Virus genome (UHGV): UHGV-1801607
Strand: one strand, 5' to 3'
DNA length: 16,068 nucleotides
Origin: a virus
A model generated the notes under the pieces. The model made no database searches. It was not told the origin of the DNA and worked only from the letters and a program-made list of their open reading frames with translations. Within the stretch, counting starts at the first letter, position 1; each line of letters starts with the position of its first letter. Position numbers and translations under genes: made by a program. Shown here piece after piece: positions 1 through 16,068 of this stretch.

Positions 1-66
1 CTGGAAAGTCTCTACAAAACACAATTGTACCGCTCTCAAAGAGCGGAACGAGCATCTTTGGTACGT

Positions 67-96
67 TTCCAATGTTAACTTTTTTCATGGTATCCT
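67..96 (+). promoter_or_regulatory. Putative sigma70 promoter with extended -10 (TGgTATCCT) for the small membrane protein gene
   Basis: Seen in sequence: TG at about 88-89, one base, then TATCCT at about 91-96; weak -35-like TTCCAA about 17-18 bp upstream. Lies about 20 nt upstream of the AAGGAGG Shine-Dalgarno of the 119..346 ORF. Not verified experimentally or by a promoter model. Confidence 0.3.
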
Positions 97-118
97 GTGA
101 AAAACTAAGGAGGTTGGT

Positions 119-346
119 GTGAAGCGATGGTTCCTCATAATTACTGTTTTCGCGATCATTTACGCTATTTTCCCTGCATTAAAAGCACCAATGCAAATAA
201 TTTCACTGGCAATAATTGCAATTGGTGCTTTCATTACAGTATCCGTACTTGTGTTTAAGGTTTTAAAGTTTTTAGTTTGGCTATCAAAAGATGATGGATG
301 CAAAGTTCATCAAGAAAAAGAAGGCAAAATAACCAAAGTTGACTAA
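119..346 (+). CDS. Small hydrophobic protein (75 aa), predicted two-helix membrane protein; candidate moron, function unknown
   Basis: ORF with GTG start preceded by AAGGAGG (107-113) at 5 nt spacing. Translation has two long hydrophobic stretches (about residues 4-20 and 26-54) and a charged C-terminal tail. AT-rich compared with the flanking structural genes. Opposite strand to the whole late operon. Confidence 0.55.
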   Translation: MKRWFLIITVFAIIYAIFPALKAPMQIISLAIIAIGAFITVSVLVFKVLKFLVWLSKDDGCKVHQEKEGKITKVD

Positions 347-2466
347 CTGTCACTAGCGAGCCATGTAATAATCCCCGTGCGGGCAATGGTTTTTGCTTCA
401 TCTGTTGATAGGGTTTTCTCCCATCTCTTAAATGCCCCAGATTGCATCAGTTTCCTTTCTATTGCGCGTCTCACTTCTGCTCTGTCTACTGGTGCGTTTT
501 GCAGGCGAAATAGCATTGATTTAAACTCAGGAGAAGACAGTAGAGCATCAGCAGCCTTTATCCTGCTTGTTTTCCCTGACATCAATGCGGACGTTATCAC
601 CCCTGTTGCACCTACACCAGGAAGACCAGATAAGCTTGTAACACCTTCCGCCGCAGCAGCTTTTGAGGCTATTCCATAAATTTTTGCTAGACTACCCTTT
701 TCCTTCAGAAAGTTATTAACTTGCTGATCCACAAGGCTGCTAGCATACTGCTTACCAGTATTGAGTCTATTCATAGCCTTGGCAGCTTGATAAATCGTAT
801 CAAGGCGCTTTGATGCATCTGTGCCAATAGCATCACGGAGAGCCTTCATATTGGCCCCATTGCGTGACATTCCGTTATACCATTTTACAAATCCATCAAC
901 CCCTAATTGCTGACCTGGTGATTTAGCATAGCTGGTAAATGCTTTATTCATTGAGGTGAGCGCAACTTCCTGCCGCATATCCTTTGGAATTGACTTCATT
1001 AATTGCCTAAAGTCACCACCGTTTCCTTTTGCCATATTAACAACGGCACTTTCAACTTTTGGAATTGCTGATTGCTGAAGTTTTCTACCCAAAACGGTTA
1101 CGGCATCATCTTCCATGGATTTTCGTTTTTTTACCAACTCCTTACCAAGCGTCCATAACTCCCCTGCGCCATATTTTTCTGCGACAGCCTGTTGGTCATC
1201 TGTTATAGCTGCATATAACTTTTTAAGAACACCTGTTTCTTCATCCTTGAATGGGCCAGAGCCTTTGCCAATAGCTTGCCCAACCTGCTTTCTAGCGAGA
1301 TCTAAACGCCCATACGTTGGCAAGGTGTTTGGATCAAGTCGGTTCAATGTCCGCTTCATTATTGGAGATAATTCATCAATTCCACCTATGTCATCAGCAA
1401 AATCCTCTAAAAAATTCAATGTATTGGTTGCCTCAATACGGTCTCTTACTGGAACCTTTTCGGCAATTTTGTTGTAGATGTTATCTGACTGATTTTGTAA
1501 TGATGAAATGGTTTTATCAAAATTATCTGCAAGCCTGTCAGAAACCAGTTGCTTATCAAGGTTTCCCCCAAATGAAGTTATCATTTCATCAGCTTTTCTT
1601 CCTAATTCAGTAATAAAGCGCTTATGCGCCTCACTAATCTCTGTTCCAGGGAGACTTGCCACTGCATTATCAAGAGCCCTGACAGCAGGATTATTAGAGA
1701 TCATTCCTGGAGTGGCATAATTTTCCAGTTCTAGCTCACGGATGGCATTTATCGCGTTAAAATCAGGATTAACTTCATCGGCGAAACCTTGAATAGCTCG
1801 TTGCCCGCCAATAAATTTATTATCCATTGCGCCAGCAGCTTTCTTTAACGTTGCTTTAGATGATTTACTCCCCATCCCTACGGATGAGCGATAAATATCC
1901 CCGGCACTATTTTTAATTTTTCCTGCAATCTTCCCAAGCGCTGGACCAACAATCTCGGCTACAGGGCCAGCCACAGCGCCAATAGCAGCGCCGGAAGCAA
2001 CATCGCCATTTGTTCCATTGGCTACAATAGCCCCTTCTCCAGCACCAAGCCCTGCGGCGGCAGCCAGCCTTGCCGCCCCTTTCGGAACCTGAGAAATAAT
2101 CCCACCACCACTAACAAATGGCGCTGCTTGTCCAACAAACTCACCAACATCTTGTGCGGTTGATGGTTTTGCCGCTAACTTCTGCTGTAGAGACTGAATT
2201 GCGGCTTGCTCTTCTGGTGTCATATCCTGAAACAGGCCAACACCTTTACCAACATCCATCAATCCACTGAGAACGCCATACATAAAACGGTCGAAACCGT
2301 TAGCATTATTAACAACATTTTCCTGTCTGGAATTTTCCTCTGGTGAAACCAAAGGAGATTGCTGCTGTTCTGGTTGGGAATCAAGCACAAAGCCATCAGG
2401 AAGTTGTGAGTTATCAGGCTGTTCATCCAGAACAAACCCCTCTGGTAAACCTACATTGGTTGCCAT
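343..2466 (-). CDS. Ejection/internal virion protein, P22 gp16-like (707 aa)
   Basis: Last gene of the conserved P22 order 7-20-16; large Ala/Gly-rich protein with an N-terminal tandem peptide repeat ([12 protein letters not shown] / [12 protein letters not shown]). Start overlaps the stop of the upstream gp20-like gene by 16 nt. Assignment by synteny and composition; longer than the 609 aa I recall for P22 gp16. Confidence 0.75.
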
Positions 2467-3800
2467 TGTCCGTTCCTGTAAATAATTTTCTGACCAGTTT
2501 TAGGATTTTTCGCGGTCATACCTTCTCGAAATGTTTGACCGCCAGATGTTGCTTGTTGTGTCTGTTGTTGCGCAGGCTGCTGAATATCTTCATACAGCTT
2601 GGCTTTTCTGGATTGCAATTGCTTAGTTAGTCCGCTGGGGAGAGAATCTCCATAAGTTGAAAGATAATCATCCATTTGCTGATTAAACTTTTCGCCTTCA
2701 GTATTTGCCATCAGTTTTGAGGTGTTGATTAAGTCTTGGACTTGCTCATTATTCAGCATCTTGCCGTTAGATAATTGGCTAACATAGTTACCAAGTGTGC
2801 CGAATATTCCATCAGTGCGTTTTACCTGCACTTGCTCACCTTCGCGTACCACAGATTGCGGATCCAGCGATTTCATATAGTTGAAAATCATTCCCAACTG
2901 CGCGGCTGGAGTGTTGCGCTTCCCAAGGGCTTGTAGGTTGTCAGAAGCACTGCGCATTGCAGAATAATTCTTTGAGAACCCATTAATATCACTATTCAGA
3001 TCTCGAACAAGTTTTGGGTCAATCTTTCCGCTTTCCTGTTGTTTCATCCCTAATTCCTGCAACTTCAGGGCTACGTTATCATTATGCATTTGTGCCCGCT
3101 GAGCCCTGTCTAGTTGAGCGTTTTGGATATTTGCCCATCCTCTCGCGTTCTCCATGTCAGCCTGACGGATGCTTTCATCCAATCGCCCTTTCTCAAGTTG
3201 GCGACCAACCATCTTATCCTGATAATCCAGCATTTTATCCGGGCCAACAGCCCCTAGCGTCATAGTAGTCAGCATGTGTGATAGCTGCTCTGGATTCTGA
3301 ATACCTGTCTGAATCATCCAGTCAGCATTAGCACCAACGCGATTTAACCTGTCCTTGTTGTCAGTAATGAATTTACTGTAGGCTTCCGGTCCCTGAGAAA
3401 GAGCGACGTTAGCCATCATGGCTAAATCGCCCATATCGTTGCGTTGCTGATCATTAAGACCGGAAAACGCCTGTTGTGCCTGTGCAACAAACGCTGGATT
3501 TTCCTGGGCAAACTTAAATAGTCCCGATGGATCACCAGAAGCCCATGCATCAGCGTGAACCTTATTGAACGCACTAATAGCTTTCTGTTGCTGTTCCTGA
3601 TTGTAAATATCAGCAACTCCAGCCAGACCACGTAACGCGGTCAGGCCAACGTTATTTGCACCTGAGCGAGCCAGTTCATTGTTTTCGCGGATCAGACCAA
3701 GCGTTGCGTTAATGTCGCTTGCCTTTGGCGCATTCTCGTTTTGCGCACCAATGCCAGCAAGAAAACCACCAGAATTAATACCCTGTTGCCACGTAGCCAT
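2451..3800 (-). CDS. Ejection protein, P22 gp20-like (449 aa)
   Basis: Position between gp7-like and gp16-like genes; ATG at 3798-3800 preceded by GGGG 7 nt upstream; Gln/Asn-rich protein typical of P22-like ejection proteins. Confidence 0.75.
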
Positions 3801-13884: not shown

Positions 13885-14350
13885 GGTTGAATAGCTCCTT
13901 GATACGAGAGCGTCGCTTATCGCGATCTCCCTTATCAGGTGTCACGTCTTCAACTTGCGACTGCTCTTTGAGGCCCAAATCACGGGCGATGATATTAGCG
14001 TTGAGAAGGTCAGCGGCTGCGCCAGAGAATTTCTGGTCGTAGATGACCTGCTCTGCTCGCGTAACGACTTCAGATAAATCTTCTCGCAGGCGATATGTGC
14101 GCCATGTTTCAAGCGTCACATCAATGAACAGAGTGAGGCCGGTAATGGTCATCGCTCGCATCTTGGCGATAGGCTCTTGTATCACTTCACCCTGATACGA
14201 GAACGCCTTCATCTCCCATAGCGGGTTAGCTTCAACCCACTCGAAGTATTCACAACAAGCAGCCCACAGCGCCTCGGGCGATTCGAATTTAGGGTTTCGC
14301 CCATGACTACTGCGGGCCTCCCAAAATCGGTTGCCCTTTGGTGCTGCCAT
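13862..14350 (-). CDS. Terminase small subunit, P22 gp3-like (162 aa)
   Basis: Translation [44 protein letters not shown]... matches my recollection of P22 gp3; choosing the ATG at 14348-14350 gives 162 aa as in P22 (the track ORF starts two codons earlier at MNM). C-terminus overlaps the terminase large subunit start by 23 nt. Confidence 0.85.
14062..14083 (-). other. Putative pac site (headful packaging recognition sequence) inside the terminase small subunit gene
   Basis: Minus-strand sequence GAAGATTTATCTGAAGTCGTTA (encoding EDLSEVVT of gp3) differs at 2 of 22 positions from the P22 pac sequence as I recall it (GAAGACTTATCTGAGGTCGTTA). Coordinates approximate; recollection not checked against a reference. 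Confidence 0.45.
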
Positions 14351-14373
14351 ATTCATCTCACTTAGTTGTTATT

Positions 14374-14553
14374 TCAGGCTGAGGACTCTTTCGCGCCTTC
14401 AATCAGTGACTGCTTCAGCAATTCGAGTGTGCCAATCGCCTCGCATAAACTGATTTCACCATCGTAATCATGGATGGCGCTTTCCATCCGCTCGTATAGC
14501 TCTTGAGTAATTGGGAATTTCTTCTCCTTACCCAAATTGATTACGCGGCTCAC
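14374..14553 (-). CDS. Candidate small ORF (about 59 aa with GTG start, or 37 aa from internal ATG at 14485-14487) in the 200-bp gap upstream of the terminase small subunit
   Basis: Hand translation of the minus strand: GTG at 14551-14553 preceded by GGAG about 7 nt upstream, reading (M)SRVINLGKEKKFPITQELYERMESAIHDYDGEISLCEAIGTLELLKQSLIEGAKESSA, stop TGA at 14374-14376. Below the 60-aa cutoff of the supplied ORF track. Could be non-coding. Confidence 0.25.
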   Translation of the reverse strand: MSRVINLGKEKKFPITQELYERMESAIHDYDGEISLCEAIGTLELLKQSLIEGAKESSA

Positions 14554-14554
14554 A

Positions 14555-14797
14555 TCATGCTCCGGTGGTGAACAGGTCTAACGCTTCCTTCGATTTACGC
14601 ACCGCTTCGATAGTGCGGGTCGTGATATCTGAATTAGCGCCGCCTGACTGGAAGTGAATTTTGAATAGCTCAAGCTTCAGCTCGTCAGTGCCAATGAATT
14701 GAAATGCTTCTTCTGCGGCTGCGTTCTGGTTCATGACCAGTTTGTAAATCTCTAACTGGAATTTCTGTTCTTCAGTCATGGGAATAATCTCTGCCAT
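14555..14797 (-). CDS. Hypothetical small protein (80 aa) upstream of the terminase genes
   Basis: ATG at 14795-14797 preceded by GGAG about 6 nt upstream; acidic, helix-rich sequence. Position corresponds to the small ORFs found between the lysis cassette and gene 3 in P22-like phages. No function recognisable. Confidence 0.6.
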   Translation of the reverse strand: MAEIIPMTEEQKFQLEIYKLVMNQNAAAEEAFQFIGTDELKLELFKIHFQSGGANSDITTRTIEAVRKSKEALDLFTTGA

Positions 14798-14900
14798 TGT
14801 TGGCTCCGTTTATCCGTTAAAAGGGATATCAGTTAAGTTATCCCGTGTAGGGTATAAGCCATTATCAAAGCCACTCTGTAGGGAATGGCTTTTGTAATAA

Positions 14901-15272
14901 CTACTGTTCGCTTAGCTTCTGCTTCAGCAAGTAACCTTCCAGCATCCAGATTTTATTCACCGCATTTTCGCGGGCGATCTTGCGACCGATCTCCGGGTCG
15001 AAGTTTTCCGGGCTGGCGCAGGCGCTTTCGCCGGTGACGGTGAAGCCGTTGCGCAGCACCAGGACGCAGAATGTAAGAAGCTTTAATGCTTCCTGACTTT
15101 CGGTTAAATCAAGCGCGGATTTGTATGTCGCCATAGCGCCCTCTCCGCCAATACCATCGTATGCGGTGAAGCAATGCTCGCTTTTAATCACGTCTTCGAT
15201 GTGCTGAGGAGTGATTCGCGGGGCTGTTTTGCCTTTCTCAACGATTTCTTTTTCGATTTGCTGGTCGTTCAT
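14901..15272 (-). CDS. Phage protein (123 aa), tentatively N4 Gp49 / Sf6 Gp66-like family, function unknown
   Basis: Motifs LTFCVLVLRNGFTVTGESACASPENFDPEIGRKIARENAVNKIWMLEGYLL resemble the Gp49/Gp66 family proteins encoded upstream of terminase genes in many enterobacterial phages, as recalled. Family assignment not verified by a profile search. Confidence 0.6.
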   Translation of the reverse strand: MNDQQIEKEIVEKGKTAPRITPQHIEDVIKSEHCFTAYDGIGGEGAMATYKSALDLTESQEALKLLTFCVLVLRNGFTVTGESACASPENFDPEIGRKIARENAVNKIWMLEGYLLKQKLSEQ

Positions 15273-15317
15273 AATTATGACCTTGTTGGTTGTTAAAGAT
15301 GTTTTTGTGATGGCGAT

Positions 15318-15339
15318 AAAAAGGCCGCCTGAGCGACCT
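15318..15339 (-). terminator. Candidate intrinsic terminator between the 62-aa ORF and the Gp49-like gene
   Basis: Minus-strand transcript AGGUCGC-UCAG-GCGGCCU followed by UUUUUAUCG: 7-bp stem with one G-U pair, then a U-tract, about 10 nt after the ORF stop. On the plus strand the same stem would contain a C-A mismatch, consistent with minus-strand function. Confidence 0.45.
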
Positions 15340-15348
15340 GTTAGTTGT

Positions 15349-15537
15349 TCACAACTTCCATTGTTGAAGGTTCAGCATGTCGAAAAATGATCCGCATTTG
15401 GGGGGATTTTCCATTCTTGCCCTCTCTTCAGCCGCTTTGTAATAAGCCATTGGCCTTTTCACACCATCAGTACCAGTGATGTATTCAACGCCTTCCTTCT
15501 GGTCTTTGTTTACGGAAACCATCGCAACATCTTCCAC
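15349..15537 (-). CDS. Hypothetical small protein (62 aa from GTG, or 57 aa from ATG at 15520-15522)
   Basis: ORF from the track; the first codon is GTG, and an internal ATG has GGAAG upstream. An overlapping 37-codon ORF in another frame (ATG near 15630, MNLQPYGKKDSLWWRTDGKTSAESITNKWKMLRWFP) precedes it, so coding status is uncertain. Confidence 0.35.
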   Translation of the reverse strand: MEDVAMVSVNKDQKEGVEYITGTDGVKRPMAYYKAAEERARMENPPKCGSFFDMLNLQQWKL

Positions 15538-15712
15538 TTGTTCGTTATCGATTCAGCGGATGTCTTTCCATCAGTCCGCCACCACAAAGAATCTTTTTTG
15601 CCATAAGGCTGGAGGTTCATCTTTCAGTGGCTGCCAGTGTTATTTCCCCACTTACTGGCTTGGGTTGTTTCGCTGTACTGCCGTAATGCAAAAACTGGAT
15701 TAACCTGCGAAA

Positions 15713-16068
15713 TCACACCATTCCGGGCAAATACATTTGCACTTCATTTGCCGCTCTCTCACGTGCAACATGAAGCAATCTTTTTCGCCCACCAACGCCC
15801 CACTTAGCCATTTGGCTTGCGCACTGGCTTATCGCTTTGGTTTCAGTATTGATGATGTGATCGATTCTATTCAGACGGGACATTGCGCCAACGCCGAGAC
15901 GGACAACCGTTTTGAAAACTTCATAAACTTCGATTTCAAATTCCGGCTTAATCCATGCTGCATATCTGATTGCCAGAAGTTCAACACCCCACACACCTGG
16001 TTCTGCACCACCTTTGATTATTTTAAGTGGTTGAATTTGTTCCAAAGTGCTTTTTTGCACTTTGGCCT
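15713..16068 (-). CDS. KilA-N domain-like protein, 5' end probably beyond the window (partial)
   Basis: Segment GGAEPGVWGVELLAIRYAAWIKPEFEIEVYEVF resembles the conserved GG..GTWVHP.LA..FA.W.SP.F core of KilA-N/Bro-N domains, here only about 20 residues from the first in-window codon, so the N-terminal half of the domain is likely upstream of position 16068. The frame stays open to the window edge. Stop TGA at 15713-15715. Confidence 0.5.
   Translation of the reverse strand, partial: AKVQKSTLEQIQPLKIIKGGAEPGVWGVELLAIRYAAWIKPEFEIEVYEVFKTVVRLGVGAMSRLNRIDHIINTETKAISQCASQMAKWGVGGRKRLLHVARERAANEVQMYLPGMV

Follow-up and report, generated by a model that had tools for sequence, protein, structure and literature searches.

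What occupies the place of the superinfection exclusion gene sieA of phage P22 when it is not SieA, and could it do the same job? The question is raised by the left end of the virus genome UHGV-1801607, analyzed here over a stretch of 16,068 nt (hereinafter, the window), where a 75-codon open reading frame (ORF; 119–346, plus strand, GTG start and TAA stop) faces the gene for a gp16-type ejection protein. The product, 75 amino acids (aa) long, is a predicted hairpin of two transmembrane (TM) segments with a conserved C-terminal tail, and belongs to the PHROGs family phrog_7294. The gene is a genuine accessory 'moron' of an Escherichia coli P22-like prophage. It is lodged between gene 16 and the tailspike gene, in the slot of the 'ant moron' that sieA fills in P22 and hkcB in HK620. 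What is new here is that a slot known for exclusion holds a membrane protein that is far smaller than SieA and unrelated to it. From its position and architecture, it can be tentatively read as a prophage-expressed inner-membrane protein that excludes superinfecting phages, with a probability of roughly 0.45.

Exchange of a cassette at the sieA site

The locus was initially described from the letters alone (the sequence-only reading) as sitting where P22 has sieA, and the coincidence turned out to be exact: the 118 bp upstream of the gene and the GTG itself are common to the two loci, and similarity stops at base 121. Window 1–121 matches P22, HK620 and some 55 further records of P22-like phages at 97.5–99% identity; the matching DNA of P22-pbi holds the annotated feature 'P sieA' (window 58–88) and the start of sieA, and that of HK620 holds the hkcC/hkcB junction. 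In a multiple alignment of P22, HK620 and phage EC.P3, identity runs through ...AAGGAGGTTGGTGTG and ends right after the GTG (base 121), so that a common promoter region, ribosome-binding site (RBS) and start codon are followed by three unrelated proteins.

The right breakpoint lies at about base 360, some five codons inside gp16, given that 11 E. coli genomes share the same gp16 sequence from base 361 on, with a different cargo. The end of gp16 reads ...ITWL-ASDS in the window, compared with ...ITWL-SQQDTTASDDQPKMQ where the cargo is a YobH-like or a 140-aa protein. As the left joint comes after base 121 and gp16 homology resumes at 361, the cassette-specific DNA spans 122–360, between two mosaic breakpoints, and comprises the cargo coding sequence together with the last four codons and the stop of gp16. 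Hence, when the cargo is exchanged, the C-terminal end of the ejection protein is rewritten as well. The cassette is complete, and the suspicion that more of it might lie to the left of position 1 can be dropped: leftward come hkcC and the rest of the 'ant moron'. Phage S.Kent 1-2-1, in which both flanks match, was expected to carry the 75-aa gene and carries the YobH-like cargo instead.

That the protein swapped into this site is unrelated to SieA, as had been surmised, is borne out by an alignment of its family with P22 SieA (hhalign probability of 0.4%, with six aligned columns); it is one of at least 12 alternative cargos. The likeness to P22 SieA (phrog_7745; types A, B and C; Leavitt et al. 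2024, PMC10883804) is one of setting: both genes share the slot, the upstream DNA and the position of the GTG, both are convergent with gene 16 and lie between the gene 16 and gene 9 homologs, and both products are predicted integral inner-membrane proteins of P22-like prophages of Salmonella and E. coli. In contrast, the PHROG match of the 75-aa protein is phrog_7294, not phrog_7745; it has two TM segments, whereas SieA has ∼160–200 aa (162–164 or more) with three to four TM segments (PMC10883804); and its ORF runs into the gp16 stop, from which sieA is separated by 22 bp. Judging by sequence, the 75-aa protein is not a member of the SieA family, and position alone matches.

One leader, 12 families of cargo

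The left joint belongs to a conserved 33-bp leader, GGTATCCTGnnnAAAACTAAGGAGGTTGGTGTG (89–121, plus strand), which contains part of an extended −10-like element, the Shine-Dalgarno (SD) sequence at 107–113 and the GTG. The leader is kept where the DNA farther upstream differs, in at least four upstream contexts. An exact-pattern scan of IMG/VR for the leader yielded at least 120 contigs, and the ORFs that start at its GTG fall, among the matches listed, into 12 unrelated families. Most frequent in this set is an HkcB-like protein of 109 aa (23 contigs), followed by a 129-aa signal-peptide protein (19), a second 109-aa family (13), SieA itself (164 aa; 11), the protein of the window (75 aa; 10), a 62-aa two-TM protein (9), an unnamed family of 106 aa and a soluble protein of 140 aa (8 each), a 116-aa multi-TM protein (6), two more unnamed families of 149 aa (5) and 99 aa (4), and a 68-aa YobH-like protein (2). 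Such alternation of cargos between conserved flanks in P22-like genomes is what the comparison of synteny, which the sequence-only reading had proposed for the junction, brought to light.

Within their first 45 residues, 11 of the 12 families listed contain a hydrophobic stretch (nine pass a Kyte-Doolittle threshold of 1.6 over 19 residues), so that the slot is strongly enriched for envelope-directed proteins. This bias suggests that the slot favors envelope proteins, and the leader, to judge from its conservation, is a fixed joint for cassette exchange. HkcB and the other cargos share with the 75-aa protein the identical leader and the lack of a known function and, for the most part, a small size and an N-terminal hydrophobic segment. 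HkcB is otherwise unrelated, with 109 aa, a hydrophobic N-terminus and what reads in the sequence as a coiled-coil body, and the YobH-like cargo differs in having a signal anchor and a Cys-containing domain. The exact leader pattern has no match in a one-genome-per-species collection, which fits a sporadic prophage element. Variation in the 'ant moron' and the presence of hkcB in the sieA position have been described previously (PMC2629481).

A predicted two-helix protein under purifying selection

The ORF has its GTG at 119, preceded at a spacing of 5 nt by the SD sequence AAGGAGG (107–113), as originally reported, and farther upstream by the extended −10-like TGgTATCCT (88–96). Its TAA (344–346) overlaps the complement of the gp16 TAG (343–345), so there is indeed no intergenic space. 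Kyte-Doolittle and charge analysis recovers the two hydrophobic segments and the charged tail first noticed by eye: the segments span residues ∼4–21 and 27–46, with KAPMQ between them, and are followed by an amphipathic KVLKFLVWLSK and a mixed-charge tail. The Lys and Arg residues are placed at the N-terminus and after TM2 (a positive-inside pattern), and this arrangement fits an N-in/C-in two-helix hairpin, which is the topology we infer. AlphaFold2, run on a shallow family alignment, gives one continuous helix that is uninformative on the hairpin (predicted local distance difference test, pLDDT, 76.6; predicted template modeling score, pTM, 0.38).

The G+C content of the ORF is 34.2% (28.9% at third codon positions, GC3), compared with 48.7% for the whole window, and only 0.16% of 228-bp windows are as AT-rich. 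The earlier estimate of one-third G+C thus stands, as does the position well below the flanking genes, but not the companion estimate of about one-half for the adjacent genes: gp16 (44.4%) and gp20 are at 44–46%, and it is the remaining structural genes that reach 50–53%. No other credible plus-strand gene was found in the window, as had been claimed. An open stretch of at least 75 codons arises in 203 of 5000 shuffles (∼4%, counting six frames). A gene on the opposite strand (47- and 48-aa ORFs at 160–303 and 255–401) was ruled out, as these frames are interrupted in homologs.

Homology searches, recommended at the outset, assigned the protein to phrog_7294 over its full length (PHROGs v4, function unknown; residues 1–75 on 1–75, E = 3e-48, 163 bits), and a profile search of the PDB gave nothing. 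Sub-threshold matches in Pfam, NCBIfam and PADLOC (DUF4229, E = 4.1; VirB4, E = 8.2; '4TM effector', E = 0.046) are noise, and no full-text paper was found that names the family or its RefSeq accessions. A word-indexed search of 5.8 billion proteins yielded 21 clusters, all from E. coli or Salmonella and all at least 78% identical to the 75-aa protein (at least 84% for near-full-length matches). In an exhaustive hidden Markov model search, the 1.84 billion representatives contained one more true relative, P0022, also of 75 aa and 57% identical; two sub-threshold matches, P0023 (repetitive and hydrophobic) and P0024, are long proteins (722 and 1034 aa) with nine matched stretches each and were discarded. 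The relatives are confined to P22-like prophages of E. coli and Salmonella. The gene is present in 34 of 5426 complete E. coli genomes, chromosomal in all of them, and in hundreds of Salmonella and E. coli contigs, in two allele groups: MKRWFLIIT..., behind the sieA-type leader, and MKQWLIIIA..., with its own RBS after mnt and two ORFs. A natural lysogen with the gene is E. coli 55989 (NC_011748, 2674292–2674519, EC55989_RS13400).

The absence of the ORF from related prophages would have spoken against a gene; instead, the frame is open at exactly 75 codons in every homolog, and the other five frames contain 3–10 stops. Ten distinct E. coli alleles differ at 24 sites, all within the first 130 nt (window 119–250), leaving the tail invariant. 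The variable sites are distributed 15/2/7 over codon positions 1/2/3, and the avoidance of position 2 means that the changes exchange hydrophobic residues for hydrophobic ones. The ratio of nonsynonymous to synonymous substitution rates (dN/dS) among these close alleles, ∼0.7, is by itself too weak to demonstrate selection, so that the divergent pair is needed. The divergent homolog is 68% identical at the nucleotide level (dS ∼1.0), with dN/dS of 0.32 overall and 0.13 in the tail; it again has 75 codons and 34% G+C, with 4–9 stops in the other five frames. Conserved between the two proteins are MKRW, IY, Pro19, LKA, LKFL and a stretch of the tail. Our conclusion from these sequence comparisons is that purifying selection acts on a protein product, whose tail is the most constrained part and whose helices mainly require hydrophobicity. 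Within E. coli, the nonsynonymous diversity of TM1 (pN, 0.090) is at least as high as the synonymous diversity (pS, 0.076), and every replacement is hydrophobic; this pattern could reflect relaxed constraint or diversifying selection.

Expression from the prophage

The putative promoter region (58–96, plus strand) combines the segment equivalent to P sieA of P22-pbi (58–88) with TGgTATCCT (88–96). An 85-bp region upstream of P22 sieA is sufficient for SieA function in single copy, with exclusion of at least 10^7-fold (PMC10883804), and its counterpart in the window is 97.5% identical. Prophage expression of the 75-aa gene is plausible because nearly the same DNA sufficed for sieA. The proposal that the gene has its own promoter is, then, partly upheld: the extended −10-like element is present and the upstream DNA is nearly that of sieA, but a strict sigma-70 scan came out empty on the plus strand. 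After the stop, no convincing plus-strand terminator was detected, only a weak 5-bp stem at 550–567. As the stops overlap and a convincing terminator is missing, a transcript made in the lysogen must run antisense into gene 16. An Rfam scan of window 1–1000 returned no family at E values up to 1.

The MKQW allele group, found in E. coli 90-9280, EC6, EC19 and AST240, has no sieA-type leader and relies on its own GGGAGG and ATG. There, the gene follows mnt, a 92-aa ORF and a gene for a 186-aa protein with a C-terminal TM segment (in Pfam, this protein has only a weak match, below threshold, to a coiled-coil family). The four genes share a strand and resemble a lysogenic operon. As the annotation of P22-pbi gives Mnt as a repressor for the maintenance of lysogeny, it is probable that the unit is expressed in the lysogen.

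A moron, in the sense of Hendrix and colleagues, is an autonomous accessory gene in the late region of a prophage, with its own promoter and terminator and a distinct base composition. The 75-aa gene has the distinct composition (34.2 vs 48.7% G+C) and alternates with other cargos between the same flanks. For the promoter and terminator, there are the sieA-type upstream DNA, in which the strict scan found nothing, and the weak stem at 550–567.

Linkage to one gp16 lineage

The gp16 of the window is only distantly similar to those of P22 and HK620 (24 and 22% identity, respectively, by BLASTP), and the 75-aa gene is strictly linked to this lineage. All 34 E. coli genomes with the gene carry the window-type gp16 C-terminus, and so do all 11 leader-bearing loci with the gene (the window and the 10 IMG/VR contigs listed). 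The converse association is looser: among the matches listed, the window-type gp16 also stands next to the 140-aa cargo and next to the YobH-like cargo, in one case each. The 57%-identical homolog lies on a contig with gp7, gp20 and gp16 homologs, at the same position and with the same 4-nt overlap, and its gp16, which ends in ...ITWLSSGD, is 78% identical to that of the window. The other cargos leave a gap of 0–45 bp before gene 16, and several were found with two gp16 types; among those listed, the 75-aa cargo alone overlaps gene 16 and alone is found with just one gp16 type.

Given that SieA escape mutations map to the C-terminal regions of gp16 and gp20 (PMC10883804), the linkage could reflect function. 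It could equally be simple adjacency: the 4-nt overlap leaves no intergenic DNA for recombination, so that adjacency alone predicts linkage.

Exclusion of superinfecting phages and its alternatives

How SieA blocks the gp7/gp20/gp16 conduit of P22 is still unclear. By analogy, the 75-aa gene would probably be transcribed in the lysogen, from the sieA-type leader or, in the second allele group, from the mnt operon; its product would probably be inserted in the inner membrane as an N-in/C-in two-helix hairpin with the conserved tail in the cytoplasm; and, acting at that membrane, it would prevent DNA delivery through the gp20/gp16 conduit by superinfecting phages, most plausibly those of the P22-like group. 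This reading is suggested by the slot, leader and start codon shared with sieA, by the sufficiency of 85 bp of nearly identical DNA, by the enrichment of the slot for envelope proteins and by the confinement of the family to P22-like prophages. Also in line with it are the two hydrophobic segments with their positive-inside charges, the constraint on the protein, the bond with one gp16 lineage, the probable lysogenic operon of the MKQW group and the presence of the gene in the viable phages EC.P3 and E212. A SieA-like role is favored because SieA is the only characterized occupant of the slot. Short inner-membrane proteins encoded by phages or prophages that block genome entry are known, such as HK97 gp15 and T4 Imm; gp15 is likewise a moron, and its G+C content departs from that of its neighbors. 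These belong to different phage types with other entry machinery, and no sequence relationship to them was detected in the libraries searched.

Several observations weigh against exclusion. The protein shows no homology to SieA (the 0.4% alignment above) and lacks the motif FxRYPxEAxxFNK of the SieA C-terminal region. It has no meaningful match in Pfam, NCBIfam or PADLOC and nothing in the PDB profile search; the family is of 'unknown function' with no solved structure, and the argument is built on position and predicted membrane architecture. The positional analogy itself is weak, as function is known for only one of the 12 cargo families, SieA, and the slot is not restricted to membrane proteins, given the soluble 140-aa cargo. 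The strict sigma-70 scan found no plus-strand promoter, the extended −10 element being a consensus match only. Finally, the dN/dS of ∼0.7 among close alleles points to loose recent constraint on TM1, and the linkage to gp16 is matched equally well by adjacency.

A more specific and rather unlikely extension is that the 75-aa protein would be a minimal inner-membrane exclusion factor co-evolved with one gp16 lineage, recognizing or mimicking the membrane-inserting C-terminal part of gp16 and thereby jamming conduit assembly; more broadly, the 33-bp leader would mark the slot of a dozen unrelated envelope proteins, each a distinct block to podovirus genome delivery. Co-evolution is invoked because the two genes share their last bases and stay together from 100% identity down to 57% (cargo) and 78% (gp16).

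The protein might instead be directed at the host, as a lysogenic-conversion membrane protein that modulates a transporter or aids stress tolerance or colonization and rides in a permissive, prophage-expressed slot. The diversity of the cargos speaks for this, as they include secreted or anchored YobH-family proteins (Pfam PF13996) and the soluble 140-aa protein, neither with a known anti-phage role. Moreover, many small bacterial membrane proteins regulate larger ones, and the conserved tail would suit a host partner. Yet the sole characterized cargo is an exclusion protein, and a family found only in P22-like prophages and tied to one ejection-protein lineage is more easily explained by a phage-directed function, so that a host-directed role is rather unlikely. 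Permeabilization of the inner membrane by a triggered holin- or toxin-like hairpin, in abortive infection or in the modulation of lysis timing, appears clearly unlikely. Class II holins and pinholins, such as S21 of phage 21, are proteins of ∼70 aa (65–95) with two TM segments, N-in/C-in topology and a charged C-terminal tail, and by hydropathy and charge the 75-aa protein shares this predicted architecture, and only the architecture; the PADLOC match to a '4TM effector', weak and not significant (E = 0.046), points the same way, and the convergent late transcript, antisense to the whole mRNA, would offer a possible off-switch. No holin family is matched in Pfam or PHROGs, even at E values up to 10, and the gene lies behind putative P sieA-type DNA, outside the late operon and the lysis cassette, with gp16 and hkcC as its neighbors and no adjacent endolysin. 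A type I toxin-antitoxin pair would include a dedicated antisense small RNA, and neither an antitoxin-like partner nor an Rfam small RNA was found (window 1–1000, E up to 1); the sole antisense transcript to be expected would be the late operon mRNA. In addition, constitutive production of a pore-former from a lysogenic promoter would carry a cost, whereas the gene persists stably in 34 complete genomes and hundreds of contigs.

The cassette could also act, alone or beside the protein, through its transcript, which, being antisense to the 3′ end of gene 16, might silence gene 16 of an incoming homologous phage, as has been proposed for STnc6030 of the P22-like prophage BTP1. This transcript is convergent with the gene 16 homolog, to whose 3′ end it is antisense, and it confers complete, phage-specific exclusion, with escape changes mapping to the gp16 C-terminus (Owen et al., bioRxiv 10.1101/787010). 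The convergent genes, overlapping stops and missing terminator (apart from the weak stem) would allow a similar RNA here, and the bond with one gp16 lineage fits a sequence-specific mechanism. STnc6030 is described as non-coding, and the BTP1 junction has neither a cargo gene nor the leader, in contrast to the selected 75-codon ORF of the window, which keeps its exact length at 68% nucleotide identity; an antisense RNA alone needs neither the length nor the protein-level constraint, so the transcript cannot be the whole story. All cargos of the slot are convergent alike, including SieA, which acts as a protein, and the BTP1 escape mutations are amino-acid changes in gp16 (bioRxiv 10.1101/787010). 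A role of the RNA is thus quite improbable. A chance or decaying ORF in AT-rich recombination junk can be nearly dismissed. It is true that this is a small AT-rich orphan with, beyond close relatives, a single 57%-identical cluster among 1.84 billion representatives, that dN/dS among close alleles is ∼0.7 and that ∼4% of shuffles give an equally long frame; against this stand the strong, ideally spaced SD sequence, the 75 codons intact in all alleles and the divergent homolog (dN/dS of 0.32 and 0.13), the avoidance of codon position 2 by variable sites, the annotation of the gene by the NCBI pipeline and the existence of a PHROGs family.

A separate observation concerns STnc6030 itself. Inside its region in BTP1 (LT714109, ∼14011–14081, minus strand) lies a 23-codon hydrophobic ORF, MERDLLNFVFLIFGLVVGKLLFA, with GGAGGG 3 nt upstream and TATAAT ∼30 nt upstream. 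This ORF is convergent with the gene 16 homolog, whose last ∼12 nt it overlaps. Since the published escape mutations are amino-acid changes in gp16, it may be worth testing whether STnc6030 encodes a small protein.

If the exclusion reading is correct, a protein of half the size of SieA that is tied to another lineage of gp16 would offer a much simpler means of studying the passage of podovirus DNA across the inner membrane, as well as a compact anti-phage module. The leader census is itself a list of 12 cargo families that can be put through the single-copy assay used for SieA. Should the 75-aa protein have no action on phages, the slot would still show, as a clean case from nature, how cassettes are exchanged at a fixed joint of promoter, RBS and start codon.

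Genomic context of the cassette

The window is a minus-strand P22-like virion block with the genes for the small terminase subunit, portal, coat and tail proteins, followed by gp7, gp20 and gp16. The gp16-type ejection (DNA-transfer) protein (343–2466, minus strand, 707 aa; phrog_6704 and phrog_770, 'DNA transfer protein') is convergent with the 75-aa gene, the 4-nt overlap being at 343–346. GC3 is 34% in gp16, compared with ∼53% in the rest of the virion genes (the gp16/gp20 region being 343–3800), and the cargo may stem from the same source of lower G+C as the ejection-protein module.

To the left, overlooked in the sequence-only reading, lies the 5′ end of an hkcC homolog (1–88, minus strand, ATG at 88–86; MKKVNIGNVPKMLVPLFESGTIVFCRDFP...; phrog_1365, function unknown), truncated by the window edge, so that the 75-aa ORF is flanked on both sides by minus-strand genes. 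The DNA is 99% identical to the HK620 hkcC/hkcB junction, and the full 121-aa gene is present in a 100%-identical E. coli prophage. The likely SD sequence of the hkcC homolog (AGGA, the complement of 92–95) lies inside the element read as the extended −10, so the 30-bp spacer serves two divergent genes.

Segment 119–346 and the gp16 DNA at 347–1100 are each 100% identical to chromosomal prophages of two E. coli strains (CP062910 and AP045773), and the same DNA is 97.5% identical to EC.P3 and E212, isolated, viable phages that carry the 75-aa gene. Leftward, the identical prophage continues with hkcC, an orf59a-like gene, an XhlA-family gene, mnt, arc, ant and the tailspike gene, a region known as the 'ant moron' of P22-like phages, as described for phage epsilon34 (Villafane et al. 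2008, PMC2629481).

At the other end of the window (14357–16068), where there is no credible plus-strand gene, small minus-strand ORFs are similar to genes 66–68 of Sf6, and a 115-aa ORF matches a PHROG annotated as a transcriptional regulator. In six related prophages, the DNA between mnt and the slot encodes pairs of Panacea-domain proteins, a ClpP-like protease, a P63C-domain protein and an XhlA-family protein, accessory genes that look like toxin-antitoxin or defense candidates.

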